Positions 1-19,518 of a stretch of DNA of 26,154 nucleotides are shown here, in pieces. The notes beneath the pieces are model-generated. The model saw only the letters and a program-made list of their open reading frames with translations, was not told the origin of the DNA and searched no databases. The stretch is from a virus (Duplodnaviria > Heunggongvirae > Uroviricota > Caudoviricetes). Every line of letters starts with the position of its first letter. Positions within the stretch are counted from its first letter, which is position 1. The stretch lies in the IMG/VR virus record IMGVR_UViG_3300046047_000103; one strand, 5' to 3'. A program made the position numbers and the translations under genes.

Positions 1-229
1 CTGCTGGTGCTGCGTAAACTGGTCGCGGTACACGAATAACCAGATGATGTCCGGACTACTTGCCGGACAGACATGACAAGCAAGATGCTAACCACTGATT
101 GCTTCCAGCATTAAATTGACTGGATAATGGCGAGATGGTGAAAGCCCATCGAGTGGAGTTAAAACCCGCGGCTTAATTAACCGTGGGGATCAGGGAGACT
201 ATGAATCGATCTGTTCACGCCACGCTTAC

Positions 230-302
230 GCCCTTATAGCTCAGATGGTAGAGCAGCTGACTCTTAATCAGCGTGTCCGGGGTTCGAGCCCCCGTGAGGG
301 CA
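230..302 (+). tRNA. tRNA-Lys(CTT)
   Basis: Cloverleaf: acceptor GCCCTTA/TGAGGGC, anticodon arm GCTGA-CTCTTAA-TCAGC, TTCGAG T loop. Confidence 0.95.
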
Positions 303-350
303 CTTATGAGCATTGATAGCATTGTGGCGCATTGATGATCATATGATTAT

Positions 351-434
351 GGATGGTAGGCTGAGCGGTTAAGGCGCCTGTTCGCTAAACAGGTTCGTGT
401 CACAGCGTGGTGGGTTCGACTCCCGCATCATCCG
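351..434 (+). tRNA. tRNA-Ser(GCT), long variable arm, C33
   Basis: GGATGGT/ATCATCC-G; CCTGT-TCGCTAA-ACAGG; paralog of 7852-7935. Confidence 0.9.
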
Positions 435-557
435 CGGTCGGTAGGGGTTGTCCTCACTGGGCGATCAGCGACCTCATGAGCGCACGCATGGGATCAGTCA
501 CAGATCGTTGCAGTGCAGAACCCCTTCAGAAGATGGACTCCGTGAAGGTCCACGAAT

Positions 558-630
558 GCCGTCATAGCTCAGATGGTAGAGCGGCGAGCTGAAACCTCGC
601 AGGTCGCTGGTTCAAGTCCAGTTGTCGGCA
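558..630 (+). tRNA. tRNA-Phe(GAA)
   Basis: GCCGTCA/TGTCGGC-A; GCGAG-CTGAAAC-CTCGC. Confidence 0.93.
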
Positions 631-631
631 C

Positions 632-715
632 GGTGCGGCTGAGCGACGGTCGCTCAGGTGGCCGTAACCCACCCGTTCGTAATGAGCATTGCAGGTTCGA
701 ATCCTGTCCGCACCA
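632..715 (+). tRNA. tRNA-Tyr(GTA), long variable arm, C33, extended D stem
   Basis: GGTGCGG/CCGCACC-A; GGTGG-CCGTAAC-CCACC. Confidence 0.85.
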
Positions 716-739
716 CTCAGATCTGAAACAGATCTGTAT

Positions 740-810
740 GCGTCCATCGTATAATGGTAGTACTTGAGCTTCCAAACCTCATGATCTGGGTTCGATTCCT
801 AGTGGGCGTG
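740..810 (+). tRNA. tRNA-Trp(CCA), divergent (31-39 mismatch; Gly-TCC reading less likely)
   Basis: GCGTCCA/TGGGCGT-G resembles the acceptor of Trp at 3951; standard spacing gives loop TTCCAAA; G73. Confidence 0.7.
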
Positions 811-962
811 CGAGACCAAGCCGTGAGGTGAGGTCATGGTTGACTGCATGATCGCCTACAATGCGTGTGGCTAGACACTGAAGTCATGCAGACAGCGTCG
901 TCACTGGTATCGGCGGTGACGGCAACCGGTTCTCGTGTCCGGCTTACCAAAATACGACCAAT

Positions 963-1035
963 GGGGGCATGGCGCAGCTGGTAGCGCAACTCCTCAGCAA
1001 GGAGTAGGTCGCGGGTCCGAGTCCCGCTGCTTCCA
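963..1035 (+). tRNA. tRNA-Ala(AGC), A34, C33
   Basis: GGGGGCA/TGCTTCC-A with G3.U70; ACTCC-TCAGCAA-GGAGT; T loop TCCGAG. Confidence 0.88.
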
Positions 1036-1113
1036 CTTGGATCCATCAAGACAGGGCGGCGTCAGCAGCATGATGGATCCGCGACACGCCGGTGATTGAG
1101 ATCGGGCTGACTA

Positions 1114-1122
1114 TGTTACAAT
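1114..1122 (+). promoter_or_regulatory. Putative extended -10 promoter TGTTACAAT within the tRNA array
   Basis: TGn-TAnnnT match; TTGAGA at 1096-1101 with a short 15-nt spacer. Confidence 0.5.
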
Positions 1123-1262
1123 GGTATTGTCCACGAAAACGATGGATCACCCGAAGCCTGATAACCTAATCTAAGTCAATCATCTGGATCCATTGTCCAC
1201 AGCGTATGCTCAGGATGATGGCAGGATGTCAAAGTCCCCGCGATGACGATAAACCCGCGAAT

Positions 1263-1343
1263 GCCCCTATGGTAGGAATTGGTAGACACGGTCGACTTAA
1301 AATCGATTGCTTAGGCGTCCCGGTTCGAGTCCGGGTGGGGGTA
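1263..1343 (+). tRNA. tRNA-Leu(TAA), long variable arm
   Basis: GCCCCTA/TGGGGGT-A; GTCGA-CTTAAAA-TCGAT. Confidence 0.92.
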
Positions 1344-1346
1344 CAA

Positions 1347-1366
1347 GGTCGCGCCTAGGCGCGACC
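1347..1366. repeat. Perfect 20-bp palindrome GGTCGCGCCTAGGCGCGACC
   Basis: Read directly; 3 nt after tRNA-Leu. Confidence 0.85.
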
Positions 1367-1447
1367 GCTCATCGGATCCATGTGATTCGATGAGCATGCA
1401 GTACCGTGAGATGATGCGGGTTCGAGTCCGCCTGGCAATCATTAACG

Positions 1448-1536
1448 GTGACGGAGTTGATCTAGTAACTCAATGGCAGAAGCTACTCCATTTATTGTGG
1501 AAATGCGGGTTCGAATCCCGCCTAGTGATCCGTCAC
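1448..1536 (+). pseudogene. Degenerate tRNA-like unit closed by an extra 8-bp stem
   Basis: D-loop-like AACTCAATGGCAGAAG; perfect T arm GCGGG-TTCGAAT-CCCGC; broken acceptor; GTGACGGA/TCCGTCAC outer stem. Confidence 0.5.
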
Positions 1537-1615
1537 AGATGATGCTGTGCGTCAATGGCGCATTGGAATAGATTCAACATTCTAATGGGGCCAGTCATCC
1601 AGCGTCCGCATGAAT

Positions 1616-1689
1616 GCTTTCATAGCCCAATAGGTAGAGGCGATGGATTTAGGATCCATTCAGTGCTGGTTCGAGTCCAGTTGAAAGCA
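1616..1689 (+). tRNA. tRNA-Leu(TAG), short variable loop
   Basis: GCTTTCA/TGAAAGC-A; ATGGA-TTTAGGA-TCCAT. Confidence 0.9.
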
Positions 1690-1692
1690 CAA

Positions 1693-1780
1693 TGTCCGAA
1701 TCAACTTAACGGCAGAGCAGCGGCCGAAACGCCGTGCGCGGGTCATTCCCGGCCTGTAGGGTTCGACTCCCACCGGACAG
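1693..1780 (+). pseudogene. Atypical tRNA-like unit (6-bp acceptor, 6-nt anticodon loop CGAAAC, long variable arm)
   Basis: TGTCCG/CGGACA-G; GCGGC-CGAAAC-GCCGT; TTCGACT T loop with bulged stem. Confidence 0.55.
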
Positions 1781-1920
1781 GAGCTGTATGCAAGTGGTGA
1801 CGATCATGAGCATACGGTTCACAGCGTGGCGAAGATCTTGACGATGATCTTCATCACGCACGTTTGGCTCTATCATCGCTTGGCGATGATTGCAAGGTTC
1901 ATCCCAAGGAGCCAATTCAT

Positions 1921-1992
1921 GGCCGTGAGGTCCTACGGTTGGACGCCTGCCTGTCGAGCAGGTTGCAGCGGGTTCAACTCCCGTCATGGTCG
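1921..1992 (+). tRNA. tRNA-Asp(GTC)
   Basis: GGCCGTG/CATGGTC-G; CCTGC-CTGTCGA-GCAGG; near-copy at 5226. Confidence 0.92.
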
Positions 1993-2237
1993 CAAGGTGC
2001 CTGGTGTCTGCGCCGAGGATCAGCCCCTGGCTGATCCATGACACCCGGTGGAAACGGCATGGTGACATGAAAACAGCATGGATCCATGATACGCCCTCCG
2101 TCTGTTACTTTCCGTCGGTGATGCTGAGGCGGCGGGGTTAACGATCTGTATTGTAGCGGATCGCTGCCGGCACGACCACATGGTCTTGAATGGACATGAA
2201 GCATCTCACGTGACGTCCGTGAAGCGTCACTTAAATT

Positions 2238-2317
2238 GGTGCGTTGGCAGAGCGGCAAATGCGGCTGGCTGTAAACCAGCTCTTTCGGGTTCGGGGGTTC
2301 GAGTCCCTCACGCACCA
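2238..2317 (+). tRNA. tRNA-Tyr(GTA)
   Basis: GGTGCGT/ACGCACC-A; GCTGG-CTGTAAA-CCAGC; variable arm. Confidence 0.94.
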
Positions 2318-2462
2318 CACAACATGTTTGGATGGGTTAAAGGACACCAATGGCCCCATCCTGTTGACAGTGCTCACTGTCAACAGCGTGTGATCGTGCA
2401 GTGCAGGTGCCCAGTCGACCACTGCACGGGATAGTCCTCATGATGACGATAAAAGCATGAAT

Positions 2463-2533
2463 GCCTCTATAGTTCAAAGGAAGAACTTCGGACTTTTAAT
2501 CCGCAGATCGGATATCGTAATTCCGTGGGGGCA
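2463..2533 (+). tRNA. tRNA-Lys(TTT) with non-canonical T loop
   Basis: GCCTCTA/TGGGGGC-A; TCGGA-CTTTTAA-TCCGC; T arm CGGA-TATCGTAAT-TCCG lacks TTC. Confidence 0.7.
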
Positions 2534-2654
2534 CGATGGTCATGTGGATTGCAACTGCGTGATCACGACTCGAATCTGCAGATTCGGGAATATGGATGCA
2601 AGTGAGCACAAGCCGCTGGTTGTGGTTCGAATCCCGCTCCTCAATGGTTATACC

Positions 2655-2750
2655 GGCGAGGGCGCGCCAATCGGTAGAGCGGGCGGCTGAACTCAACTGC
2701 ATTCATCATGCAAGCATGTGGGGGTGTTCGACTCCCGCCTAGGGGCTCCA
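2655..2750 (+). pseudogene. tRNA remnant, identity undetermined
   Basis: D-loop-like CCAATCGGTAGAGCG and T-loop-like GTTCGACTCCC; acceptor and anticodon stems do not pair cleanly. Confidence 0.35.
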
Positions 2751-2817
2751 TCGTGAGAGCGGTGGACACGCCCTTGGTGGTCTAGGGGTCATGGCGCTTC
2801 ATATTGCTTGCACTTAT

Positions 2818-2891
2818 GCTTCCATAGCCCAACAGGTAGAGGCGCAGGCTTCAGGAGTCTGTCAGTGCCGGTTCGAATCCAGTTGGAAGCA
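2818..2891 (+). tRNA. tRNA-Leu(CAG), short variable loop
   Basis: GCTTCCA/TGGAAGC-A; CAGGC-TTCAGGA-GTCTG; paralog of 1616-1689. Confidence 0.88.
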
Positions 2892-3028
2892 CGGGCCACT
2901 AAAGATGTGAGTTCGCTCTGAAATCTAGCTAGATACATCAATTGACCAAGGATGGTAACGTTGCGGAGTCATGATCCGTATGACGCGGATGTCACACGAT
3001 GTTGGCATCATGCATCACCATTCGATAT

Positions 3029-3102
3029 GCTCTCATAGCCCAATGGATCAGAGCGCTTGTCTACGGAACAAGAGGGTGCGGGTTCGAGTCCCGCTGGGAG
3101 CA
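3029..3102 (+). tRNA. tRNA-Arg(ACG)
   Basis: GCTCTCA/TGGGAGC-A; CTTGT-CTACGGA-ACAAG. Confidence 0.95.
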
Positions 3103-3128
3103 CCGTGACCACATGGTGTGGTCATTAT

Positions 3129-3199
3129 TGCCCATTCGTCTAACGGCAGGACGAAGGTCTTTGGTACCTTTAAAGTTGGTTCGAATCCAGCATGGGCAG
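3129..3199 (+). tRNA. tRNA-Gln(TTG)
   Basis: TGCCCAT/ATGGGCA-G; AAGGT-CTTTGGT-ACCTT. Confidence 0.93.
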
Positions 3200-3200
3200 C

Positions 3201-3273
3201 GCTTCTCTGGCTCAATGGTTACAGCATCTGACTCTTAATCAGAGGATTGTGGGTTCGATCCCCACGGGGAGCA
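3201..3273 (+). tRNA. tRNA-Lys(CTT)
   Basis: GCTTCTC/GGGGAGC-A; TCTGA-CTCTTAA-TCAGA. Confidence 0.93.
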
Positions 3274-3276
3274 CTT

Positions 3277-3347
3277 GGGGACATTCTGGTGACAGATGTC
3301 TACCATAGGGGCGGCTATATACCATGGTTCAAATCCATGGCGCTCCA
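3277..3347 (+). pseudogene. Degenerate Ala-like tRNA unit or minihelix
   Basis: Perfect T arm CATGG-TTCAAAT-CCATG followed by GCGCTCC-A; no clean D or anticodon arm. Confidence 0.45.
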
Positions 3348-3389
3348 CGACGGATGATGTCAGATCTGCTCCACATCGTCCTCACGTAT

Positions 3390-3462
3390 TGCTTGATAGC
3401 GCAACTGGGAACGCGCTCCGCTCTGGACGGAGAGATTGCAGGTCCGAATCCTGCTCAAGCAG
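3390..3462 (+). tRNA. tRNA-Gln(CTG)
   Basis: TGCTTGA/TCAAGCA-G; CTCCG-CTCTGGA-CGGAG; T loop TCCGAA. Confidence 0.92.
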
Positions 3463-3550
3463 CTTCACAGGTTTGGTGGCTAGCGTCGGCGGGTTGATAC
3501 TGCCGACGCCCGTAGCGAGGGAGAGTCCTCGTGCAGATCTGTGGATTCTT

Positions 3551-3625
3551 GCCCTTGTAGCTCAGCGGATCAGAGCATCGGTCCTCGGAACCGAGTTGTC
3601 GCAGGTTCGAATCCTGTCAGGGGCA
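3551..3625 (+). tRNA. tRNA-Arg(TCG), C33
   Basis: GCCCTTG/CAGGGGC-A; TCGGT-CCTCGGA-ACCGA. Confidence 0.92.
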
Positions 3626-3710
3626 CTGGCGATGGTGCAGGCAGTGATGCTTGCGGATCGCCTGCAGCGTCACCGGGTCAGGGTGGGAACACAGCAGCCC
3701 AGCGCTGTTT

Positions 3711-3783
3711 GGGGTTGTAGCTCAGATGGTAGAGCGCTTCGTTCGCATCGAAGAGGTCGCGGGTTCGACTCCCGCTAATTCCA
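3711..3783 (+). tRNA. tRNA-Ala(CGC)
   Basis: GGGGTTG/TAATTCC-A with G3.U70; CTTCG-TTCGCAT-CGAAG. Confidence 0.93.
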
Positions 3784-3865
3784 CTGACCTTGGATCTGGT
3801 CTTACCATTGATGGGGCGCTTAGCTCCGTCATCTTCTGTACCTAGGCTGGTCCGAGTGTCTTCAT

Positions 3866-3948
3866 GGTGCGTTGGCAGAACGGCGAATGCAGTCGATCAT
3901 ACAGATCGGCATCTTCGGGATACGGGGGTTCGAGTCCCTCACGCACCG
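3866..3948 (+). tRNA. tRNA-Tyr-derived body with rewritten anticodon arm (identity undetermined)
   Basis: Acceptor and T arms identical, D arm nearly so, to 2238-2317; anticodon arm GTCGATC-ATACA-GATCGGC; G73. Confidence 0.7.
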
Positions 3949-3950
3949 CA

Positions 3951-4023
3951 TCGTCCGTGGCGTAAATGGTAGCGCAGCGGTCTCCAAAACCGCAGATTGC
4001 AGGTTCGAGTCCTGTCGGGCGTG
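3951..4023 (+). tRNA. tRNA-Trp(CCA)
   Basis: (T)CGTCCG/CGGGCG(T)-G; GCGGT-CTCCAAA-ACCGC. Confidence 0.93.
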
Positions 4024-4057
4024 CTATGACTGCAACCTGTAAAAAGGGTAGTCGTAT

Positions 4058-4129
4058 GCCGGTATAGCACAATGGTCAATGCTTCTGCTTAGTAAACAGA
4101 TGATGATGGTTCGATTCCATCTATCGGCT
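4058..4129 (+). tRNA. tRNA-Thr(AGT), A34
   Basis: GCCGGTA/TATCGGC-T; TCTGC-TTAGTAA-ACAGA. Confidence 0.88.
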
Positions 4130-4130
4130 C

Positions 4131-4204
4131 GTTCGCGTGGCGCAGTTGGTTAGCGCGCTTCCATGACACGGAAGAGGTCGCCTGTTCGAGTCAGGCCGTG
4201 AGCA
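4131..4204 (+). tRNA. tRNA-Val(GAC)
   Basis: GTTCGCG/CGTGAGC-A; CTTCC-ATGACAC-GGAAG. Confidence 0.93.
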
Positions 4205-4205
4205 C

Positions 4206-4278
4206 GCCTCCATAGCTCAGATGGTAGAGCGGCTCTCTCGTAAAGAGCAGGTCTCCGGTCCGATTCCGGATGGTGGCT
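4206..4278 (+). tRNA. tRNA-Thr(CGT)
   Basis: GCCTCCA/TGGTGGC-T; GCTCT-CTCGTAA-AGAGC; T loop TCCGAT. Confidence 0.92.
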
Positions 4279-4308
4279 CTAGTGGAACAGATCTGTATCC
4301 ACGATCAT

Positions 4309-4380
4309 GCGGGTATCGTACATCGGTAAGTACATCTTTCTGATGAGAAGAAAAGCGGAGTTCGACTCTCTGTACCCGTA
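4309..4380 (+). tRNA. tRNA-Ile(GAT), divergent (G37)
   Basis: GCGGGTA/TACCCGT-A; TCTTT-CTGATGA-GAAGA. Confidence 0.8.
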
Positions 4381-4404
4381 CTGGTGACAGACTGCTGTCA
4401 TCAT

Positions 4405-4477
4405 GGGGACGTAACTCAATTGGTAGAGTGCTTCCCTTGCAAGGAAGATGTAGCGAGTTCGAATCTCGTCGCCTCCA
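4405..4477 (+). tRNA. tRNA-Ala(TGC)
   Basis: GGGGACG/CGCCTCC-A with G3.U70; CTTCC-CTTGCAA-GGAAG. Confidence 0.94.
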
Positions 4478-4600
4478 CGGCGCCCGTTCAACGGGCTATG
4501 TCATTAGAAGCGTTCTAACGCGCATTAGACGTGAGACCATCATGAAGATGAGTGTTCATTCATCTTCATGGTTATCTCGCTTAGAACGCAATCTAAGCAT

Positions 4601-4672
4601 CCGGATGTAGTACAACGGTTAGTATAATTGTCTGATACACAATTGACGATAGTTCAACTCTATCCATCCGGA
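4601..4672 (+). tRNA. tRNA-Ile(GAT)
   Basis: CCGGATG/CATCCGG-A; ATTGT-CTGATAC-ACAAT. Confidence 0.88.
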
Positions 4673-4739
4673 CTATGGATCCATATGATGTGGACATGTG
4701 AGCAAGCATTGAGCCCGTCATGATGGATCCATTCTGCAT

Positions 4740-4813
4740 CGCTGCGTAGCTCAGTTGGTGAGAGCGTTCGACCCATAATCGAGAGGTCGGTGGTTCGAGT
4801 CCACCCGTAGTGA
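4740..4813 (+). tRNA. tRNA-Met or Ile2 (CAT), elongator type, C33
   Basis: CGCTGCG/CGTAGTG-A; TTCGA-CCCATAA-TCGAG; no initiator features. Confidence 0.88.
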
Positions 4814-4934
4814 CGATCCTGTTAGCATGACGACTGGTCATCTCATGCTGATGGGGTAAGAATGAGAGCAGCGTTGGATTGACCGATCCGCGTGGATTTG
4901 CGTCCGTTAGTGGCGTGATCCCCCATTCGATTAT

Positions 4935-5007
4935 GGTCCTATGGAGCAACGGTCACCTCGTCTGATTCTCAGTCAGAAGATTCCGGGTTCGATTCCCGGT
5001 GGGACTA
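4935..5007 (+). tRNA. tRNA-Glu(CTC)
   Basis: GGTCCTA/TGGGACT-A; TCTGA-TTCTCAG-TCAGA. Confidence 0.93.
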
Positions 5008-5225
5008 CGCAGCATTGAGTACATGTCCGGTTCAATGGGCACATCCAAATAGTCTCTCAGGATCAATGTGAGGATGGGTCAGATCATGATGGAAGTCCTG
5101 TAGATCGTGGTCATCATGCTGCACGCAACATACGGGTCTAGCGGTCCCGTCGGTGATCATTGCGAGCATTACAGCGCATCGTGCTCGCATGATCTTACAG
5201 ATCCTCCGTCAATGGATCTTATTAT

Positions 5226-5297
5226 GGCCTTGAGGTCCTCCGGTTGGACGCCTGCCTGTCGAGCAGGTTGCAGCGGGTTCGATTCCCGTCATGGTCG
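5226..5297 (+). tRNA. tRNA-Asp(GTC)
   Basis: Near-copy of 1921-1992; CCTGC-CTGTCGA-GCAGG. Confidence 0.92.
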
Positions 5298-5298
5298 C

Positions 5299-5369
5299 CG
5301 TGGTGTGGCCGAATGGTTAGGCGGCGGTCTGCAAAACCGTATAAGTCAGTTCGATTCTGATCACCACGT
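5299..5369 (+). tRNA. tRNA-Cys(GCA)
   Basis: CGTGGTG/CACCACG-T (U73); GCGGT-CTGCAAA-ACCGT. Confidence 0.94.
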
Positions 5370-5372
5370 CTT

Positions 5373-5686
5373 GAGTTCCGCTTGACGTCGCGCGTCTAAC
5401 AGGCGTGAGGAAATTCGGGGCATCATAGGGCAGGGGTGTGGATTAGACCACCGATCGTGAGATCAGCGATAGCGCCGCAGAGACCATACCGCCGATGGAT
5501 CCATACGGGTCACAGGCAAGGGTGAAAAGCGTGAGGTAAGAGCTCACGGGATAATCTTCGCGAGGAGATCCTTGGCAAGCCGACCCTGATGAAACCACAA
5601 GTCGTGCTGGGCGGCCCGTCCAATAGCACAGGTAGCGGGATCAGATGGATGGCGTCTTAGACAGAACTCCGGTTACGGTGGAACTC
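5373..5686 (+). ncRNA. rnpB: RNase P RNA (bacterial type A, compact)
   Basis: P1 GAGTTCCGC/GTGGAACTC; CR-I GAGGAAATTCGGGC; AGCGCCGCAGAGACCATACCGCC; AAGGGTGAAA; P15 loop GGTAAGAG; GGCAAGCC; CAGATGGATGG; CR-V ACAGAACTCCGGTTAC, all in canonical order. Confidence 0.93.
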
Positions 5687-5711
5687 ATGAACGATCTGCT
5701 CGACACTCCGG

Positions 5712-5740
5712 TTGTCAAGATGCTCGATCAGTGATATGAT
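5712..5740 (+). promoter_or_regulatory. SigA-type promoter TTGTCA-N17-TATGAT with extended TG
   Basis: -35 at 5712-5717, -10 at 5735-5740; upstream of tRNA-Arg(CCT). Confidence 0.7.
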
Positions 5741-5821
5741 GGATCATGTTGTTCCTGATGACAACAGAAGCTTGATAACAGGATAGTGATTGACCCGATG
5801 AAGTCAGTAAACTCATCATAT

Positions 5822-5895
5822 GCCCGCATAGCCCAATGGACTAGAGCGCCAGTTTCCTAAACTGTAGGTTGTCGGTTCGAATCCGACTGTGGGCA
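5822..5895 (+). tRNA. tRNA-Arg(CCT)
   Basis: GCCCGCA/TGTGGGC-A; CCAGT-TTCCTAA-ACTGT. Confidence 0.93.
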
Positions 5896-6068
5896 CTTGG
5901 ACACTCCGGTGAAGCTATCCTCATGTGAAGACGTAGGGGCTTGACAGGGGCTGGTGGAGTGGACAATCGTGTAGGCAATGCGGTTAAGCGTCGTCAATGG
6001 TCGCAAAGTAGGCGGAAGCGTTGACAAGCATGCCGATCCCAGCAGGATGGCGCCATCTTGCTGGTTAC

Positions 6069-6142
6069 GCCTCGGTAGTCTAATGGATCAAAACGCCACT
6101 CCTCTAAAGTGGATAGTATGGGTTCGAATCCCATTCGAGGCA
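6069..6142 (+). tRNA. tRNA-Arg(TCT), C33
   Basis: GCCTCGG/TCGAGGC-A; CCACT-CCTCTAA-AGTGG. Confidence 0.9.
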
Positions 6143-6143
6143 C

Positions 6144-6218
6144 GTGGACTATGGCTCAATGGTAGAGCGACGGATTGTGGCTCCGTAGGTGCGGGTTCGA
6201 TTCCCGCTAGCCCAACCA
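6144..6218 (+). tRNA. tRNA-His(GTG), G-1, A73, encoded CCA
   Basis: G-TGGACTA/TAGCCCA-A-CCA; ACGGA-TTGTGGC-TCCGT. Confidence 0.92.
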
Positions 6219-6259
6219 CCGATGAGAATGTCAACAGATGTTGACAAGAATCATCGTAT

Positions 6260-6334
6260 GGCCCCGCGGTGTGCTTGGTCTGCGCATACGTGACTTTCAA
6301 TCACATGGTGACGGTTCGAGTCCGTCCGGGGCTA
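6260..6334 (+). tRNA. tRNA-Glu(TTC)
   Basis: GGCCCCG/CGGGGCT-A; CGTGA-CTTTCAA-TCACA. Confidence 0.88.
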
Positions 6335-6363
6335 CCCTCCATGAGACATGGATGAACGATCTT

Positions 6364-6434
6364 GCCCCATTGTCGCCGGTTGCGCAACGATATCTTATAA
6401 ACATTGTAAGAGGGTTCAACTCCTTCATGGGGTA
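6364..6434 (+). tRNA. Probable tRNA-Ile(TAT), weak D and anticodon stems
   Basis: GCCCCAT/ATGGGGT-A; GATAT-CTTATAA-ACATT; T arm GAGGG-TTCAACT-CCTTC. Confidence 0.65.
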
Positions 6435-6599
6435 CTTGTCGGGGAATGGCATAGTCTCCAGCGCACGTCATCCTAGGTGGCGTGGTCAACTGGCGGCAAG
6501 CGCCAGCAGATCTGATCTGTCGCTTCCCGTAAGAACAGCTCCTCTCCCCGACCACATCGTGATATCTTGTACACGACATTGGTATCATGGTGCTTGCAT

Positions 6600-6670
6600 G
6601 CGGATGTAGCCCAATGGTAAGGCGTCAGTCTTCCAAACTGATTACGCGGGTCCGATTCCCGTCATCCGCT
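6600..6670 (+). tRNA. tRNA-Gly(TCC)
   Basis: GCGGATG/CATCCGC-T; TCAGT-CTTCCAA-ACTGA; T loop TCCGAT. Confidence 0.94.
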
Positions 6671-6826
6671 CTGAAGGCCAACAGCTCCTGGACTAGCGAT
6701 CCGAGAGTTGCATAAACGGTGTGGTAGTCTGTTGGCCTGTAACACGCGCTGCGTCTCATGTGCCGGCAAGCGCCGTCACGCAGGCTATATCGGACACTCA
6801 CGTGGTGAGACAGGGTGTCCACCAAT

Positions 6827-6899
6827 GCGGACATGGTCTAGCTGGTAAGACGCGACCTTCCCAAGGTTGAGATCGCGGGTTCGAGCCCCGTTGTCCGCT
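6827..6899 (+). tRNA. tRNA-Gly(CCC)
   Basis: GCGGACA/TGTCCGC-T; CGACC-TTCCCAA-GGTTG. Confidence 0.95.
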
Positions 6900-7026
6900 C
6901 GATCGTCATTGCGGTAATGGCTGGCCGGGCAGTAATGGCGTTGATACCCGGAACTGCGCTCCTTGTGGATTCGATTGTATCCACGCAGGGTTAGGCGATC
7001 ACGATGGAGCTTGTCGCCGCCATTAT

Positions 7027-7099
7027 GCTTCCGTAGCTCAGATGGCAGAGCGCCTCGGTCACATCGAGGATGTCGATGGTTCAAGTCCATTCGGAAGCA
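7027..7099 (+). tRNA. tRNA-Val(CAC)
   Basis: GCTTCCG/CGGAAGC-A; CCTCG-GTCACAT-CGAGG. Confidence 0.93.
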
Positions 7100-7100
7100 C

Positions 7101-7177
7101 TGCGGGGTCGAGTAGCAATTCGGTAGCTCTCGTGGCTCATACCCACGGTGTTGCAGGTTCAAATCCTGCCCCCGCTA
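7101..7177 (+). tRNA. tRNA-Met(CAT), initiator-like
   Basis: TGCGGGG/CCCCGCT-A with 1-72 mismatch; CGTGG-CTCATAC-CCACG has only two of the three initiator G-C pairs. Confidence 0.85.
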
Positions 7178-7218
7178 CTAAGATCTGCGCTCATGAACGC
7201 AGATCTGCATGCAGTCTT

Positions 7219-7294
7219 GCTCCTGTAGCCCAGTCCGGCCCAAGGCGTCTGCCTTACACGCAGAAGATCCATGGTTCGAATCCATGTGGGAGCA
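7219..7294 (+). tRNA. tRNA-Val(TAC)
   Basis: GCTCCTG/TGGGAGC-A; TCTGC-CTTACAC-GCAGA. Confidence 0.93.
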
Positions 7295-7438
7295 CGGCGG
7301 AACCTACTTGCAAGAGTCATCGTGCTGATAGTTCCCGAACGGGAGTAAGACGAGTGCAGGGAATGCCCTGGACTCGTCGAGAATTCAATGGTCGACTGGT
7401 TCCTTTCGCAATGCTGGCATTCAAGCATTGCACTCAAT

Positions 7439-7511
7439 GCGGACATAGCTTAGTTGGTAAAGCGCGACCTTGCCAAGGTCGAGACCGCGGGTTCAAGTCC
7501 CGTTGTCCGCT
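7439..7511 (+). tRNA. tRNA-Gly(GCC)
   Basis: GCGGACA/TGTCCGC-T; CGACC-TTGCCAA-GGTCG. Confidence 0.95.
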
Positions 7512-7515
7512 CTTC

Positions 7516-7588
7516 GCCTTGTTAGCTCAGATGGTAGAGCGGCCGCCTTGTAAGCGGCAGGTCTCCGGTTCAAGCCCGGAACATGGCT
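7516..7588 (+). tRNA. tRNA-Thr(TGT)
   Basis: GCCTTGT/ACATGGC-T; GCCGC-CTTGTAA-GCGGC. Confidence 0.93.
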
Positions 7589-7589
7589 C

Positions 7590-7674
7590 GGATGATTCGC
7601 ATAGTGGTCGAGTGCACTTGTCTAGAAAACAAGAGTGGGTCACACCGCCGGGGGTTCGAATCCCTCATCATCCG
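7590..7674 (+). tRNA. tRNA-Ser(AGA), A34, long variable arm
   Basis: GGATGAT/ATCATCC-G; CTTGT-CTAGAAA-ACAAG. Confidence 0.92.
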
Positions 7675-7851
7675 CTATTGATGATGGATAGATCGGTCTT
7701 CAACGATCTTATCAGCAGTCAAGAAACATGATAGCAGGGATTGAAGATACTTGCTGTCATGGATCGTGGTGGACACGCCCTGGTGCATAGCCAGGAACAC
7801 GATCTAGTCAGGGTGGCTCCATGCCATCACTGACAGCGCCATGATCATTAT

Positions 7852-7935
7852 GGATGGTAGGCTGAGCGGTTAAAGCGCCTCACTGCTAATGAGGTTCGGG
7901 TAACACCGTGGCGGGTTCGACTCCCGCATCATCCG
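7852..7935 (+). tRNA. tRNA-Ser(GCT)
   Basis: GGATGGT/ATCATCC-G; CCTCA-CTGCTAA-TGAGG. Confidence 0.94.
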
Positions 7936-8190
7936 CAAGATCATGCCGGCAGTGATGTGGACATGATCCCTCCGCCGCAGGGGAACTGGGGAGCCGTGTG
8001 GGATCCCCGACTGCGGTCATGTCGGCTCTGCCCACAGACTGCCGGCATCGTGGAGATCCCTGGTCGCGCAGGTCAAGACGCGCCGTGGAGGCTGGCCGTG
8101 CTCCACGATCATCAAAAACCAGGCGGATATGCTAAACAGAGCTAATAGGAATCTGGGAACCATGCTGTCTGCATGTGAGACAGCATGTAT

Positions 8191-8276
8191 GGAGAGTGTG
8201 ATCTATTGGTAAGGTCGACCCGCTTCGAATACGGGCGCCGGTAATACGGTTAGGGGTTCGATTCCCTTACTCTCCG
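8191..8276 (+). tRNA. tRNA-Ser(CGA)
   Basis: GGAGAGT/ACTCTCC-G; CCCGC-TTCGAAT-ACGGG; variable arm. Confidence 0.9.
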
Positions 8277-8291
8277 CAATCATTGTCACGG

Positions 8292-9221
8292 TCATACCAT
8301 CGTCGGTATGAAACCGATCTGGAAGATCTGCTGTCGTCCTCCCATGTTCAATATGACAGCTCTCCCCCTTGGCCTAGCCGGGAGATCATACCTCGGGTTC
8401 TCCGAGAACAAATCCCTGAATGCTTTCCAATTCTGATGTCCGCAATAGATCTTCGTCATAGAGTTCGATACGATCTCACGACCAGAAGTACTGATCGTAT
8501 CAAGATAGCCAGTGATCATGAAGACATAGATGCCGGCGCTCCTGCACAGCCTGACCAGATAGTTGATAGTGTCAGTCATGAGCGAGATCTTCTCTGCCGC
8601 ATGGACAGTTCCCATTCTAGACGGGCTCAGCGTGGAGACCCCTCCGAGCAGCCAGTCAGCTGGATCAATAATGATCCATTCAGTCTTCCTCGACGATAAG
8701 ATCTTCTCCTCGCCCTCAGCGTCACCAACCGTGTTAGCAAGCTGCTTGTACGTGTCATTCATCTCAACCCTCAGACGAGTGATGAGATCATACGCCTCAT
8801 CTATGCTCCGGGCCACACGGTCACCTTGACGAAGATTCTTCTGGACTCCATTAAGATCAATGACGTTCAGTCTGATCCCATCATGACGGAGTCCGTGCTC
8901 GATGATCGTCCTCATAAGAACGGTCTTACCGCTTCCTGTTCCTCCGGATACGATCACACTGGGATTCTTGTTAAGATCGAGGATCACATCCTTACCGCCC
9001 TCTCCAGCACCTATGCGGACAGTTGAGCGCGGATCGTCATCATCGTTCCTGGAGTCGGTATCGATCGGCTTGTATATGAGCTCGTTGGGGAGATCGGGGT
9101 CTGGAGCACTGACCCCAAGTTGCTTCAGATTGGAGTCAAGGGTCTTCCATGTCGGGGTTCCCGGATTCACCGTGACGAGGAACGGCTTGCCGTTAAGCGC
9201 TTCATCCCTACTTGACAACAA
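8292..9221 (-). CDS. FtsK/SpoIIIE-like P-loop ATPase domain protein
   Basis: 309 aa; DLNKNPSVIVSGGTGSGKT Walker A, NVIDLNG, IIIDP at the Walker B position, CRSAGIYV; TTG start uncertain. Confidence 0.75.
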   Translation of the reverse strand: MLSSRDEALNGKPFLVTVNPGTPTWKTLDSNLKQLGVSAPDPDLPNELIYKPIDTDSRNDDDDPRSTVRIGAGEGGKDVILDLNKNPSVIVSGGTGSGKTVLMRTIIEHGLRHDGIRLNVIDLNGVQKNLRQGDRVARSIDEAYDLITRLRVEMNDTYKQLANTVGDAEGEEKILSSRKTEWIIIDPADWLLGGVSTLSPSRMGTVHAAEKISLMTDTINYLVRLCRSAGIYVFMITGYLDTISTSGREIVSNSMTKIYCGHQNWKAFRDLFSENPRYDLPARPRGRAVILNMGGRQQIFQIGFIPTMV

Positions 9222-9377
9222 TATGGATCCATCAGATCTGTAATCATACTGAATGTTAAGATCATTAGTCGTTTTCTTATTCCTTATTCCATTGTAAACG
9301 TTAGATACCTGTTTTTCTTGTTATTTATGTTACCGTCGTGATAATGATTAACGAGTTGCCTTTATAATGATCTTGAA

Positions 9378-9386
9378 TGGTATAAT
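9378..9386 (+). promoter_or_regulatory. Extended -10 promoter TGGTATAAT upstream of tnpB
   Basis: Consensus TATAAT with TG; AAGGGG SD-like sequence before GTG 9418. Confidence 0.65.
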
Positions 9387-9417
9387 ATTCATTATCATAG
9401 TCAAGGGGTGAATAACC

Positions 9418-11040
9418 GTGAGGAAGAGCAAGATCATCAGCATGGCGCTGAGCCTTAACCTGAGCGATGCTATCATTACCCCGTCACCCGGGAAGCGGCA
9501 GCCAAGCGTTACGGAATGGCCACCTTACATCATGAGCACCCTACAGACTCAGACGAGGGATCAGAATAAGATCATAAGGCTTAACAAGGGCTTGGATCCT
9601 GATGACATGACTACTGGTCTCAAGTACTCGGATCCCCTCATCCGCAAGAACATGATCATCCCGTCCAGCGTCAAGGAGAGCAGGGCGAGCGCATGGTTGA
9701 ACACGGCATGGAGTCTGATTAACGACCAGTTAGAGTCATGGCGCTTACTCGCTCCATGGGCTCAACGATCCAGGCTCTTTGACGAAATCCGCGAGGGACC
9801 GAGCCTCGGGTTCAAGGACTTCAGGAGGAAGCACGGGTACGAGTACCTGGACTACCAGCTCTGGTCTAACGTGCAGAGAATGAAGAGTAAGCCAGGACTC
9901 CCCGTCGTGAAGTCAGCGAGAATCTCGTACTCCAAGATGGGAGTACAGTGCTCCGGGGCGCCATGGTACGATAGTAAGACTGGAGTCTTGCACTGGGAAT
10001 GCGTGAACATCGGTCAAGCGCGCCTAGACTTCTCATGGCACGCTCCGTGGATTCGTGCACGATACCCTCGCAGGTCCCTTCAGACCGGACGGATCAGCCG
10101 AGGAACGGTCCAGGCCGTACCCATGACTAGCCACTCATTCAGCGTGGGGTACGGGGAGGACGCGAGCGGTAAGATCCGTGCTAGCATCTCTCGTGAGAAT
10201 AACCGAGTAACATTCAGCCCGGCGACGGATGACGTACGATTCACCTTCACGATTAAGGCTACTCGGCCATCGATACGCAAGCGTGTTAAGGCGGTTGCCG
10301 GGTTTGATATCGGGATGGAGTCGCACGCGGTGATAGCCGGCCGGCGCGTGAGCCTGAACGGCGGAACGAGCAGGCCGCTCACGCTGAGCCGGGAGGGATT
10401 ATCCCTCCAGCGTCACATCATCTCGCTCCAGCTAAAAGAACGGGAGGCTCTCGCGAAGCTCTCGAGGATCATGCAGGATCATGAGCCTGTGGCGAACCCG
10501 AGGCTCGTGGAGGGTGCTATCCATCTTCACGAGAAGCTGGAGGCGCTGAAGGCCGCGATGGACTGGGTCGCCGCGGACTCAGCCGTGAAGCACTGCCGTC
10601 CGGGTGACGTGCTCGTAATGGAGGAGCTCTCATGGTCTGGCGGTGGCGCGGTGAAGTTCCGTCACGGCCGGCAGCAGGCTCGTGTCCAGCACCTCGCCGC
10701 TAGGCGCGGTTTCAGGATGGTTAGGGTGAACCCTGCCGGATCTAGTCACGAGTGTCCATCATGCCACGCCGCGTACGATGCGGATCCGAGGAGTCACGCC
10801 TTCAAGTGCAGCTCTTGCGGGTACGCGGGGGATAAGGATGACGCGGCCGGTTTTATCATCGCACTCCGCGGCTTGGAGAAGCTCCGCAAGAATAACAATT
10901 ACGGGTTGAGCGCCGTGGTACAGACGGTCCGCTCTCGTCGTCCAAGAGGCGACGGTTATGCCCATGCTAGTAACCAGGGTCACCGCGAACGAGCATGCTC
11001 GGTAACGGCGGCGGGTCTAACCAAGAATAACGGTTACTAG
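9418..11040 (+). CDS. tnpB: TnpB/Cas12f-like RuvC RNA-guided nuclease (no adjacent TnpA)
   Basis: 540 aa; RuvC-I AGFDIG, RuvC-II VMEELS, VNPAGSS-ECPSC...CSSC zinc finger, RuvC-III DKDDAA. Confidence 0.85.
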   Translation: MRKSKIISMALSLNLSDAIITPSPGKRQPSVTEWPPYIMSTLQTQTRDQNKIIRLNKGLDPDDMTTGLKYSDPLIRKNMIIPSSVKESRASAWLNTAWSLINDQLESWRLLAPWAQRSRLFDEIREGPSLGFKDFRRKHGYEYLDYQLWSNVQRMKSKPGLPVVKSARISYSKMGVQCSGAPWYDSKTGVLHWECVNIGQARLDFSWHAPWIRARYPRRSLQTGRISRGTVQAVPMTSHSFSVGYGEDASGKIRASISRENNRVTFSPATDDVRFTFTIKATRPSIRKRVKAVAGFDIGMESHAVIAGRRVSLNGGTSRPLTLSREGLSLQRHIISLQLKEREALAKLSRIMQDHEPVANPRLVEGAIHLHEKLEALKAAMDWVAADSAVKHCRPGDVLVMEELSWSGGGAVKFRHGRQQARVQHLAARRGFRMVRVNPAGSSHECPSCHAAYDADPRSHAFKCSSCGYAGDKDDAAGFIIALRGLEKLRKNNNYGLSAVVQTVRSRRPRGDGYAHASNQGHRERACSVTAAGLTKNNGY

Positions 11041-11044
11041 CAAC
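10887..11044 (+). ncRNA. Putative omega RNA scaffold overlapping the tnpB 3' end
   Basis: 11-bp stem TGCTAGTAACC (10965-10975)/GGTTACTAGCA (11032-11042); hairpin 10937-10953; position typical of TnpB omega RNAs; boundaries inferred. Confidence 0.5.
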
Positions 11045-11171
11045 TGTCATTGTGATAGCCTTATGATCATACGATGGTAAGATATGTCTTCAACGGGAAT
11101 GATCTTGTCATGGCGTGACGTTATAATTGCTGTATGTTCCAAATGGTACAGATTTTCTATCAACGGTAAGC

Positions 11172-11693
11172 ATGGATGGGTCGATCGTGTCTGATAAGAA
11201 GCATCGGTATGGAAAGAACAGTAAGATGAGAGCGTATTACGATTCTGTCATCAGCGACTTCAACGATGATTCCGATGAGTCGTATCTGGCAGAAGCCTAT
11301 GAGAACATGCTGATGGATCAGGGTGCTAGTAGCCCCGATGACATCCTCGGAACCATGGACTACTATGAGTATGACAACGGTGAGGACATTGTCCACATCG
11401 TGACGGATGAGGTCGGGGAAGATGATGCTAAACGAGCAATGGTGCTGTACTCCGCGACGAAGGACGGTGGCTCCCCGATCTATGGACTGAGTGACGATGA
11501 GATCAATGATGTTCTCACCGATGACGACAAGTTCGAGGAAGCGTATAAGGAATTGGAAGACGCAGGGATCGTCACCGAGAAGGAATATGAGGACGAAGAT
11601 GCGATTAATAAGTTCATTGATGACAATTGGGATTACATCGGGCCGTCATACGATTCAAGCGATGGTCTTGGAACGTATCATCAGCGGGTATGA
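11172..11693 (+). CDS. Highly acidic hypothetical protein
   Basis: ORF 11127-11693; ATG 11172 preferred because the TTG at 11127 overlaps a TATAAT box; about one quarter Asp/Glu. Confidence 0.75.
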   Translation: MDGSIVSDKKHRYGKNSKMRAYYDSVISDFNDDSDESYLAEAYENMLMDQGASSPDDILGTMDYYEYDNGEDIVHIVTDEVGEDDAKRAMVLYSATKDGGSPIYGLSDDEINDVLTDDDKFEEAYKELEDAGIVTEKEYEDEDAINKFIDDNWDYIGPSYDSSDGLGTYHQRV

Positions 11694-11845
11694 TGAAGAC
11701 TGATGGTTCTGAATTCATGGATTGCCGGCACCGGGCGCTGACAGATCTATAGCCCCATCTTTGGTACCATTGCCGTCATGTATGTTTCGATTGATGCGAT
11801 GACGGGTGACCATATCGTCATCAAGATCTTGAAGGAGAAGAGCTG

Positions 11846-12370
11846 ATGCTGGCTAAGCCGAGGAATGGATGGACAGCCCTTGAGACCACGGTTGAGGGCA
11901 AGCCGGTGACGATCGGTCCAATCAGCTACCTGTCTGACGCGCCGGTCATGCTGGCAGAGGCATTCTGGGCGCGGTTCATCGAGGAAGAGCCATTGAACGT
12001 GACGTTCGAGTCAGAGTCTGAAGGATATGTAGATCTGGTTGAGATCGACGATTGCATCTTCGCTATGAAGCATTTTGATCAGAAGGATCCGGACATCCAT
12101 GGGACCCTCATCGGATTCTCTGATATGATACCCGATCTTGCCAGTGAGCTCATTGTGGACATCACTGAGAACATTGACGGCTGGGCCTTGTTCGAAGAGC
12201 TGGGATCTGCAGATCTGGATGAGATCGGTGAACGATCTGCGGAATCTGAACAAGAACGGCGCCGTATCGCCCTGGACGACTGGTGCACTGAGCTGTCCGA
12301 CGTTCTTACCAAGTTCAAGATCGTTGACTCGAAGTTCAACCATGACGTCAGACGGCGCGCACGATGCTGA
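11846..12370 (+). CDS. Acidic hypothetical protein
   Basis: 174-aa ORF; GGAG SD; TGGTACCAT extended -10 at 11762-11770. Confidence 0.75.
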   Translation: MLAKPRNGWTALETTVEGKPVTIGPISYLSDAPVMLAEAFWARFIEEEPLNVTFESESEGYVDLVEIDDCIFAMKHFDQKDPDIHGTLIGFSDMIPDLASELIVDITENIDGWALFEELGSADLDEIGERSAESEQERRRIALDDWCTELSDVLTKFKIVDSKFNHDVRRRARC

Positions 12371-12467
12371 CGCTAATGATTTCACTTCCCGTCTTGTCTA
12401 TGATACGATGATCACATGGTTGATGATCACATTGATCATCAAAGACCGGCGAGATTAGGAGCAGATC

Positions 12468-12962
12468 ATGGCATTGATACAGCAAAGCATTGACCCAGCG
12501 ACGGGTGAGATCATTGATGACAGTGATGAGTACGGGAATAAGATACCGGTCAGTCTTGACGATGGAGCGCAGGTTCCGTCATACGCTCACGGTGATGACG
12601 CTGGTGCAGATCTGACATCGGTCGAAGATGTCATGATCAATCCCGGGGAGCGGGTTCTTGTCCGCACCGGCGTCCATATCGAACTGGATGCAGATCTGCT
12701 TGCATGGGTGACGCCCCGATCCGGTCTTGCCGTGAAGCACGGCATTACGATCGTGAATGCGCCTGGTCTCATTGACGGCGGGTACCGTGGTGAGATCATG
12801 GTCTGCCTTCTGAATACGAGCGGTGAAGCCTATCAGGTCAAGAAGGGCGATAAGATCGCACAGCTCGTGATCCAGGAGTACATTCACGCTGGATTCAAGG
12901 TGGTTCCAGAACTGCAGGCGAGTGATCGTGAATCAGGGGGATTCGGATCAACGGGAAGATGA
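12468..12962 (+). CDS. dut: Trimeric dUTP diphosphatase
   Basis: All five motifs: DAGADL, PRSGLAVKHGI, GLIDGGYRGEI, KIAQLV, RESGGFGSTG. Confidence 0.97.
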   Translation: MALIQQSIDPATGEIIDDSDEYGNKIPVSLDDGAQVPSYAHGDDAGADLTSVEDVMINPGERVLVRTGVHIELDADLLAWVTPRSGLAVKHGITIVNAPGLIDGGYRGEIMVCLLNTSGEAYQVKKGDKIAQLVIQEYIHAGFKVVPELQASDRESGGFGSTGR

Positions 12963-12993
12963 CAGCCCGAGGGTATGATCAGTAAGCAGTGAT

Positions 12994-13025
12994 AGTCCAT
13001 GGCCGGTGACGGTCATGGACTTTTT
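12994..13025 (+). terminator. Intrinsic terminator after dut
   Basis: 11-bp stem AGTCCATGGCC/GGTCATGGACT followed by TTTT. Confidence 0.75.
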
Positions 13026-13082
13026 CATATCCTCGTCATAGAGCTGGTCTTTTGACAACCACCCTGCTGATATCTTACCTGT

Positions 13083-14171: not shown

Positions 14172-14725
14172 ACATAATGATGATACTGGCATGGTCCCTG
14201 TTCCTGCTGCTTGGGGCGGTCGTGGCCTTCGCGATCTATGCCGTTCTCAGGGGTAGGAAGGAAGACAGGGAGTATGAGTCTCTCCGACTGCCATCAATTG
14301 CCGGCGATGATGCGTCCGGGGGATTAGACAGCCTGCAATCATTAAGCGTGAACGACGTCGTCAAGGACGATGACCAGCCGGCTGATGACGTGGACGAGAT
14401 CCCTGAGCCGGCAGAACCTGTGTCCGCATTGCCGATGCCAGATGACTACAGATCTGCTCCTCATGATGAAGACAGTCAGTCTTTGCCGATGCCGACGGAC
14501 GACCGTGACGAGCTTGCCCTTCCGCTGCCGTCTAGCGAGCCGGAAGATCAGTCCCTCCCGCTTCCTCCTGACGTGACGGGTGACGGCCAAGACGATGGAC
14601 CGCAGTTTGATCGGCAATTCGATCCGTTGGAGGGATCTGCGGACGATGCAGACGATCCTGTCGGCAAGATCGACAGCATGATCAATGACGACCATGAGAC
14701 TAATCCATTCCAGTTCAACTTATAA
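14168..14725 (+). CDS. N-terminally membrane-anchored acidic Pro-rich protein
   Basis: Hydrophobic N-terminus followed by RGRK; repeated LP[M/L]P motifs; overlaps the sigma stop (ATGA). Confidence 0.75.
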   Translation: MNIMMILAWSLFLLLGAVVAFAIYAVLRGRKEDREYESLRLPSIAGDDASGGLDSLQSLSVNDVVKDDDQPADDVDEIPEPAEPVSALPMPDDYRSAPHDEDSQSLPMPTDDRDELALPLPSSEPEDQSLPLPPDVTGDGQDDGPQFDRQFDPLEGSADDADDPVGKIDSMINDDHETNPFQFNL

Positions 14726-14741
14726 AGGATCCGGTGAAGAT

Positions 14742-15038: not shown

Positions 15039-15090
15039 TCTCATATCTTCATCATAGTGATCATGAACGTCGAATGGAGGCATAAGTAGC

Positions 15091-19509: not shown

Positions 19510-19518
19510 GGATAAGCA

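Follow-up and report, generated by a model that had tools for sequence, protein, structure and literature searches.

RNase P is an RNA enzyme that trims the 5' leaders of new tRNAs and works with the protein RnpA, and its RNA is one of the few ribozymes common to all cellular life. To our knowledge, this RNA has been treated as a strictly cellular or organellar gene. In cyanelles and in some plastids and mitochondria, rnpB encodes a bacterial-type RNA on a small non-chromosomal genome, near tRNAs, with the protein encoded elsewhere. The P18 hairpin is usual in type A RNAs; it is absent from a few bacterial lineages and hence not strictly defining, and its deletion reduces the activity of M1 RNA at low ionic strength. 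Phage T4 carries 8 tRNAs, which are made as dimeric precursors and matured by host M1 RNA and the host CCA-adding enzyme. A 2024 review of RNase P considers phage tRNAs solely in terms of their processing by the host (PMC11143913). The standard survey of huge phages searched for tRNAs and tmRNAs only and never mentions RNase P (PMC7162821), and this scope may explain why a viral RNase P RNA was missed. The RNase P-like RNA of camelpox virus and other orthopoxviruses has a loose structural similarity and no pre-tRNA cleavage activity (PMC3001073). We found no other viral 'RNase P-like RNA' in the literature, and a full-text literature search revealed no publication on a phage- or plasmid-encoded RNase P RNA. 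This agrees with an earlier sequence-only reading of the locus described here, in which no well-characterised example was known. The locus lies in a stretch of viral DNA of 26,154 nucleotides (IMG/VR record IMGVR_UViG_3300046047_000103), hereafter called the window.

A type A RNase P RNA gene within a tRNA array

The whole window was searched against Rfam with cmscan. The sole non-tRNA match was to RF00010 (RNaseP_bact_a) at 5372-5691 on the + strand, which spanned the full model (positions 1-367 of 367) with 166.5 bits and an E-value of 2.7e-52, the gathering score being 100 bits. The sequence-only reading had placed an RNase P RNA with its conserved regions in order at 5373-5686 and had proposed a cmscan against this family as a check; the significant match bears it out on both counts. 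Helices P1-P5 and P7-P16 of the 320-nt RNA were assigned by coordinates and checked pair by pair in a script. P1 (10 pairs), P2, P3 (7 pairs), P5, P7, P8, P9, P10/11 and P12-P16 all form, and the few mismatches are at helix ends (P1 and P2 terminal pairs) apart from one A-C in P15. The pairings seen earlier by eye for P1, P2, P3, P4 and P15 therefore hold at the level of single pairs. In the P4 pseudoknot, the 5' strand AAU-u-CGGGG (5412-5420, within CR-I) pairs with the 3' strand CUCCGGUU (5667-5674, within CR-V) through eight standard or G-U pairs out of eight, with U5415 bulged, compared with a consensus of AAG-u-CCGGG / CCCGGCUU. The divergence of CR-I (GAGGAAAUUCGGGG) and CR-V (ACAGAACUCCGGUU) that had been remarked upon earlier is real; the two motifs pair mutually and the bulged U is kept, showing that their odd letters compensate each other so that helix P4 stays paired.

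The single-stranded signatures of the family are also kept, namely GAGGAAA (J3/4), AGGGUGAAA, the GGUAAGAG loop of P13, ACAGAAC and the GGU of L15. The GGU was located by alignment to the RF00010 consensus on the 3' side of the L15 internal loop (5631-5633, + strand), and we take it to be the motif that pairs with tRNA C74/C75 in E. coli M1 RNA, a type A RNase P. Within the catalytic domain, P1, P2, P3, P5 and P15 are present together with the conserved purines of J3/4, J5/15 and J18/2. The specificity domain is that of type A, with P7-P12, P13 and P14 paired rather than the type B helices P10.1 and P15.1. Two elements are missing, as had been suspected: in the RF00010 alignment a single nucleotide replaces the 25 model positions of P18, and 13 positions of the variable P19 stretch are deleted. 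Taken together, these data identify the locus as a genuine full-length type A RNase P RNA gene and establish both its identity and its fold.

The gene is embedded in an array of 44 tRNA genes, its presumed substrates, which extends from 230 to 8277 (44 called by ARAGORN, 40 by Rfam). All of them are on the + strand, and CCA is unencoded save in tRNA-His. Among the 40 Rfam-called tRNAs, C74 directly follows the discriminator in every case and CCA is encoded in one, while U occupies position -1 in 29 and AU positions -2/-1 in 25, a uniform processing signature. Several neighbouring tRNAs of the array are separated by a single C alone. Immediately upstream of the RNase P RNA is tRNA-Cys(GCA) (5299-5370, +; ARAGORN and Rfam), with its discriminator at U5369 and C74 at 5370. 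P1 starts at 5372/5373, about 1-3 nt past this tRNA, consistent with the 3-nt distance given in the sequence-only reading. The next downstream gene is tRNA-Arg(CCU) (5822-5896, +; ARAGORN and Rfam), after a 130-nt spacer. In a promoter scan of the array, the top sigma-70-like site, TTGTCA-17-TATGAT with TG, lay just 3' of the RNase P RNA (5712-5740, +). This site is weak evidence of a promoter; promoter-like sites were not significantly enriched in the array (13 vs 7.9 +/- 2.8 in shuffles), and a terminator scan of the array was not above chance.

Window DNA was found in at least six bioreactor-sludge metagenome runs. Independent Logan contigs from several of the sludge runs tile 4200-6700 without differences and at equal depth, and the tRNA-RNase P junctions are therefore not an assembly chimera. 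A 260-nt contig from a 2024 run of another 'organism' aligns to window positions 5058-5315, from a spacer through tRNA-Asp into the beginning of tRNA-Cys, and shows 8 differences and 2 indels; a close relative thus exists in another habitat or sample.

In a 2022 run whose type was guessed as RNA, a single 204-nt contig with a depth of 22.6 was identical to the window at 5440-5639. It was the sole match of that run across window positions 1-20000, and it lies inside the ribozyme gene. Since a DNA library would cover the flanks too, coverage by this one contig fits RNA, and it provides a hint, and only a hint, of a stable, abundant transcript. No run on record as RNA contains the window locus.

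Selection on the fold and variation of P4

Relatives of the element were sought through its TraG/VirD4-like ATPase (842 aa), which is encoded together with a T2SSE/VirB11-like ATPase at 15091-18839 (+; Pfam). Single-protein searches of IMG/VR with two window proteins gave no match. The VirD4-like protein has 44 homologues, many of them on contigs of 170-491 kb, and a profile search of IMG/VR placed the closest one (66% identity) on UViG_3300044557_000292, hereafter G003. This genome of 419,707 bp has direct terminal repeats and is listed in IMG/VR as 100% complete by CheckV. It encodes 50 tRNAs and a tmRNA, and no 16S rRNA was found in it. The tmRNA gene is at 267185-267540 (-) and has the tag AAYNTSDFALAA. 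In the same genome, topoisomerase IA is split into two adjacent ORFs of 473 and 362 aa (L218:13249-15777, -).

G003 also carries an RNase P RNA, a 362-nt match to RF00010 (148.4 bits) on the same strand as the VirD4-like marker and ~6 kb upstream of it. P18 is missing from this RNA too, a single nucleotide standing in for its 25 model positions, and a hairpin occupies the place of P19. Both arrays contain the tRNA order Glu-Gly-Gly-Val-Met-Val-Gly-Thr-Ser, but they carry the ribozyme gene in different slots: its neighbours are Gly(GCC) and Thr(UGU) in G003, and Cys and Arg(CCU) in the window. At the corresponding places, 3 nt separate Gly(GCC) from Thr in the window, and Leu and Arg come next after Cys in G003, without an intervening ribozyme gene. 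The ribozyme gene has therefore moved within the array. In five further relatives (L002-L005 and L127, with 56-63% identity in the VirD4-like protein), no tRNA or RNase P RNA was found within 10 kb of the marker. The 437,576-bp IMG/VR record G005 gave a weak 258-nt RNase P-like match over the full model span (49.5 bits, E 1e-12) within a tRNA cluster (L196:1501-1758), which may be an RNase P RNA that has been reduced much further. Both ends of the G005 record carry the VirD4-like gene, and its inverted terminal repeats are thus longer than 30 kb.

The window and G003 RNAs have a mean column identity of 80%, with the differences concentrated in helices. Base pairs of the two RNAs were counted by coordinates in a script. 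Among 92 homologous canonical pairs, 49 were unchanged, 27 had changed on both sides and were still paired, 9 had changed on one side and were still paired, and 7 were unpaired in one of the two RNAs. When the 3' partners were slid by 1-3 nt as a control, there were 1-3 double changes and 67-77 unpaired positions. Pairing was kept in 36 of the 43 changed pairs, against an expected fraction of 0.375 (P = 6e-10). RNAalifold, run independently on the plain alignment, found 19 compensatory pairs. Because 27 of the 92 pairs have changed on both sides and yet pair, both RNAs are under selection for the fold. The comparison thus reveals an RNase P RNA gene under purifying selection for its structure, not a dead passenger.

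The changes reach the core of the molecule. Three of the eight P4 pairs differ on both sides between the window and G003 with pairing kept (A-U/G-C, G-C/A-U and G-C/C-G), and P13 and P14 together show five compensatory changes. This two-genome comparison shows that P4, which is nearly invariant in cells, evolves by compensatory steps in the lineage of the window and G003. The positions relevant to catalysis, by comparison, are common to both RNAs: the J3/4 As, the bulged U, ACAGAA and the L15 GGU. J5/15 is GAAA, not GCAA, in both.

P4 variants of this kind were also found in bacterial chromosomal rnpB. The rnpB of a Peptostreptococcaceae MAG (270 bits, next to the 5S rRNA) has the P4 AAU-u-CGGGG / CCCCGAUU, with U-A and G-C in place of G-C and C-G, and is presumably active. 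In rnpB of Krumholzibacteriota and Fibrobacteraceae, P4 is AAU-u-CCGGG / CCCGGAUU, where U-A replaces G-C. Chromosomal rnpB genes in which P4 carries compensated changes were seen at L131:2808-3139 and in L132, L135, L136, L143 and L146-L148. That bacterial chromosomes carry such genes suggests that P4 variants like that of the window can work. The CR-I variant itself is rare. A scan for its pattern in a library of one genome per species (185,579 species) gave only 21 matching stretches, many of them not rnpB, and only one bacterial rnpB had the variant of the window, differing from the window RNA elsewhere.

A probable huge phage and the case for a plasmid

The window is part of the JGI metagenome contig Ga0455797_000015 (349,703 bp), and its position 1 corresponds to about record position 63,910. 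Downstream of the array are genes for an FtsK-like ATPase, a TnpB-like protein, dUTPase, HU, the T2SSE/VirB11-like and TraG/VirD4-like ATPases, an AAA ATPase and an HTH protein; gyrB, gyrA, a sigma factor and an NAD-dependent ligase follow just past the window. Pfam thus recovered each of the neighbours VirD4, VirB11, TnpB and dUTPase named in the sequence-only reading. The TnpB-like gene (9418-11040, +) lies between the array and the dUTPase block and encodes a 540-aa TnpB / Cas12f-like protein in which Pfam recognises the TNB domain only. TnpB-like genes also border the homologous block in the relatives L003, L004, L127 and L129. With the RNA and 18 kb of the window as queries, blastn and megablast returned no match from the phage and plasmid collections.

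The gene neighbours had earlier been read as those of a plasmid, ICE or phage rather than of a chromosomal locus. The extrachromosomal setting stands, given the 349,703-bp contig and the complete G003 genome in which no 16S rRNA was found, and the choice among the three can be narrowed: the element is very probably a huge phage. Its likely host is an actinobacterium from bioreactor sludge. The competing explanation, which we regard as rather unlikely, is a giant plasmid or phage-plasmid of an actinobacterium whose RNase P RNA serves a plasmid-borne tRNA array. The VirD4-like and VirB11-like ATPases and a ParB-like protein would fit a plasmid, as would the long inverted terminal repeats of the more distant relatives G004 and G005. 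Outside the clade, homologues of the VirD4-like protein were found only on plasmids, at ~25% identity. The best of these is on a 437-kb Streptomyces plasmid (NZ_CP109401.1 of Streptomyces anulatus, 437,587 bp; 26% identity), where the gene adjoins a 'conjugal transfer protein' and ParA; no RNase P RNA was found on this plasmid. Large plasmids can moreover carry similar translation gene sets (Al-Shayeb 2020, PMC7162821).

The plasmid explanation also draws on the lack of hallmark genes, since the G003 searches yielded no capsid, terminase, portal, sheath or baseplate family. Pfam gave no true match there to Terminase_6N/6C, TerL_ATPase, Phage_capsid, Gp23, Phage_portal, Phage_sheath_1 or Baseplate_J, and about 50 large G003 ORFs searched against PHROGs had no structural match. 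Three candidates were rejected. The apparent TerL_ATPase match proved to be SbcC, the phrog_2 match reflected only the helicase P-loop of a Dda-like helicase, and the strong match to phrog_32699 was to an aspartase/fumarase-type enzyme, with phage-database matches that include misfiled bacterial contigs. The structural genes of huge phages often escape Pfam.

Against a plasmid stand the direct terminal repeats of G003 with its CheckV completeness of 100% in IMG/VR, and a G003 rIIA homologue (phrog_612, 8.5e-45) with matches in 2,505 phage records, those of best coverage coming from Streptomyces, Rhodococcus and Aerococcus phages. Another G003 protein has its best annotated matches in Rhodococcus and Mycobacterium phages. 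G003 further encodes a replisome of its own and several homing endonucleases, and over 300 kb nearly all of its genes share one strand; among its products are DnaB, a primase, clamp loaders, SbcCD, NrdA/NrdD, a ligase, gyrase and the split topoisomerase I.

Predicted role and comparison with known systems

The most likely function of the RNA, and one that we consider probable, would be catalytic 5' maturation of the element's own pre-tRNAs together with host RnpA. In this proposal, the predicted catalytic RNase P RNA belongs to a probable huge phage of ~350 kb whose host is likely an actinobacterium. It is a streamlined type A molecule that would combine the full catalytic core (P1-P5, P15, the J3/4 As and the bulged U) with P7-P14 and dispense with P18 and P19. 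The RNA would probably be made from the same transcripts as the phage tRNAs. As its 5' end is 1-2 nt behind tRNA-Cys, cutting the 3' trailer of that tRNA would release the RNase P RNA, which most likely binds host RnpA to remove the 5' leaders from the 44 phage pre-tRNAs. At the single-C joints, a single cut by RNase P would both mature the 5' end of one tRNA and leave the tRNA upstream with a terminal C74, for a CCA-adding enzyme to complete; G003 encodes such an enzyme beside its array. The benefit to the phage could be that tRNA maturation is secured during massive transcription of phage tRNAs or during shut-off of host RNA synthesis. We infer stable expression of the RNA, its catalysis, the use of host RnpA and this processing scheme from the genes and the fold described above.

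The search for a protein partner is consistent with this proposal. Pfam Ribonuclease_P had no match in any gene-sized ORF of the window, in keeping with the earlier statement that the window has no rnpA. A six-frame search at Pfam E <= 1 found no RnpA in G001-G006, six viral genomes that are related or otherwise RNase-P-bearing, and the control genomes were positive. Given that no RnpA was found, recruitment of the host protein would be the simplest reading. G003 does encode other candidates for tRNA processing: a class-II CCA-adding enzyme (PolyA_pol + RNAbd + HD; phrog_2244, 5e-71; Pfam and PHROGs) 5 kb upstream of the array, on the - strand (L217:15028-16638 = G003 325027-326637), and a polynucleotide-kinase / RNA-ligase-like protein (L218:11878-13137, -; phrog_8238, 2e-63). 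With the RNase P RNA and the tmRNA, these form a predicted toolkit for tRNA maturation and repair. No RNase P RNA was found in five deposited phages that are tRNA-rich or share G003 proteins, including Streptomyces and Rhodococcus phages. Since these five and the marker regions of L002-L005 are without it, the gene is dispensable for such a phage life.

A more far-reaching version, which we put forward only tentatively and consider doubtful, is that the RNase P RNA and the CCA-adding enzyme make up a self-contained two-activity tRNA maturation system matched to special substrates. The substrate design would then consist of the universal C74, the missing CCA, U-1 and tandem tRNAs joined by one C. 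The fast evolution of P4 and the loss of P18 would reflect a changed specificity or partner use, for example function without RnpA, with a phage protein or in escape from a host factor acting on RNase P. If this were true, the supply for phage translation would be independent of the host tRNA-processing machinery.

The change of several nearly universal P4 letters and the missing P18 are a counterpoint to catalysis, and they could fit a decoy or regulator whose RNase P fold binds host RnpA or pre-tRNAs with weak catalysis and acts in host shut-off or in the timing of maturation. Covariation proves a selected fold and not catalysis, and a decoy role was at one time considered for the RNase P-like RNA of a poxvirus (PMC3001073). 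However, both phages keep the J3/4 As, the bulged U, ACAGAA and the L15 GGU, the P4 changes are strictly compensatory, and nearly the same P4 variant is found in the presumably active chromosomal rnpB of the Peptostreptococcaceae MAG. The phage also needs its own 44 tRNAs matured, and blocking RNase P would hurt it. We therefore consider a decoy improbable. It is far less probable still that the gene is a non-functional passenger captured from a host, or a chimera of bacterial rnpB and phage tRNA array made in assembly: phages do pick up host genes, tRNA arrays are prone to recombination and the gene is in different slots of the two phages, but it is kept by two phages only 66% identical in the marker, with 27 compensatory changes and the same P18 deletion, its junctions are covered without differences by independent Logan assemblies from several runs, and only one bacterial rnpB in the genome scan has the CR-I variant and is different elsewhere.

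With catalytic maturation of phage tRNAs as the favoured role, a virus-borne RNase P RNA under selection extends the viral take-over of translation, which includes tRNAs, tmRNA, synthetases and ribosomal proteins, to tRNA processing. The viral RNAs would be natural minimised ribozymes of 300-320 nt, some without P18 and others without P13/P14. In P4, the most conserved part of the enzyme, compensatory changes can be followed from one close relative to the other. Natural variants thereby make the minimal catalytic core and the sequence constraints on P4 directly testable.

Pattern scans of IMG/VR revealed six further contigs with compact RNase P RNAs inside same-strand tRNA arrays. A 14-nt CR-I pattern gave 120 matches there, nearly all of them by chance, and two-part patterns worked. 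Two of the six contigs (L065 and L068, of 184 and 231 kb) carry the same RNA of 323 nt, which matches RF00010 with 179.6 bits, has lost P13/P14 and keeps P18 (L068:8757-9079, L065:11120-11442; the lineage also includes L153 and L168). The 22-nt CR-I variant GAGGAAAUUCGGGGCAUCAUAG is common to it and the window RNA, but outside this motif the two molecules differ, as do the phage backbones. G002, the record containing L068, carries a Baseplate_J gene. The other four contigs (L223-L226; 463, 202, 39.5 and 19.7 kb) have RNase P RNAs of 298-321 nt with 156-208 bits and a canonical P4, and two of them leave 6-10 nt between this RNA and its flanking tRNAs. The 202-kb viral contig also contains a group I intron (RF00028, 68.4 bits) at L225:3325-3528 (-), ~3 kb from its RNase P RNA. 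A blastn search of 50,697 phage records with a canonical RNase P RNA from a phage gave as its only match a misfiled Salmonella contig. The viral copies on L065/L068 and L223-L226 thus resemble the window RNA in length (298-323 nt), in score (156-208 bits) and in their position inside same-strand tRNA arrays. They differ from it in other deletions, a mostly canonical P4, unrelated phage backbones and the absence of a VirD4-like gene.

Among the cellular systems, the type A RNAs of E. coli (M1) and Thermotoga maritima (RF00010) are like the window RNA in having P1-P5, P7-P17 and the P4 pseudoknot with its bulged U, and bacterial type A RNAs in general have the same conserved joining regions and L15 GGU. 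In contrast to these, the window RNA is found on a virus-like element, within a tRNA array and with no rnpA nearby, and it measures 320 nt, without P18 or P19, compared to about 350-400 nt for bacterial type A. Its P4 has U-G for G-C, G-C for C-G and G-U for G-C at letters that are nearly invariant in cells. Organellar rnpB descends vertically from the endosymbiont, whereas the window gene is on a virus-like mobile genome. Like the phage T4 cluster, the window has tRNAs that lie close together, in part lack CCA and depend on RNase P (PMC11143913), but where T4 uses the host enzymes, the window phage brings the ribozyme and its relative G003 also brings a CCA-adding enzyme. Unlike the poxvirus RNA, the window RNA is a full, high-scoring member of the bacterial family. 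It takes a known ribozyme family into a new setting, a viral one, as a reduced molecule whose P4 is variant.
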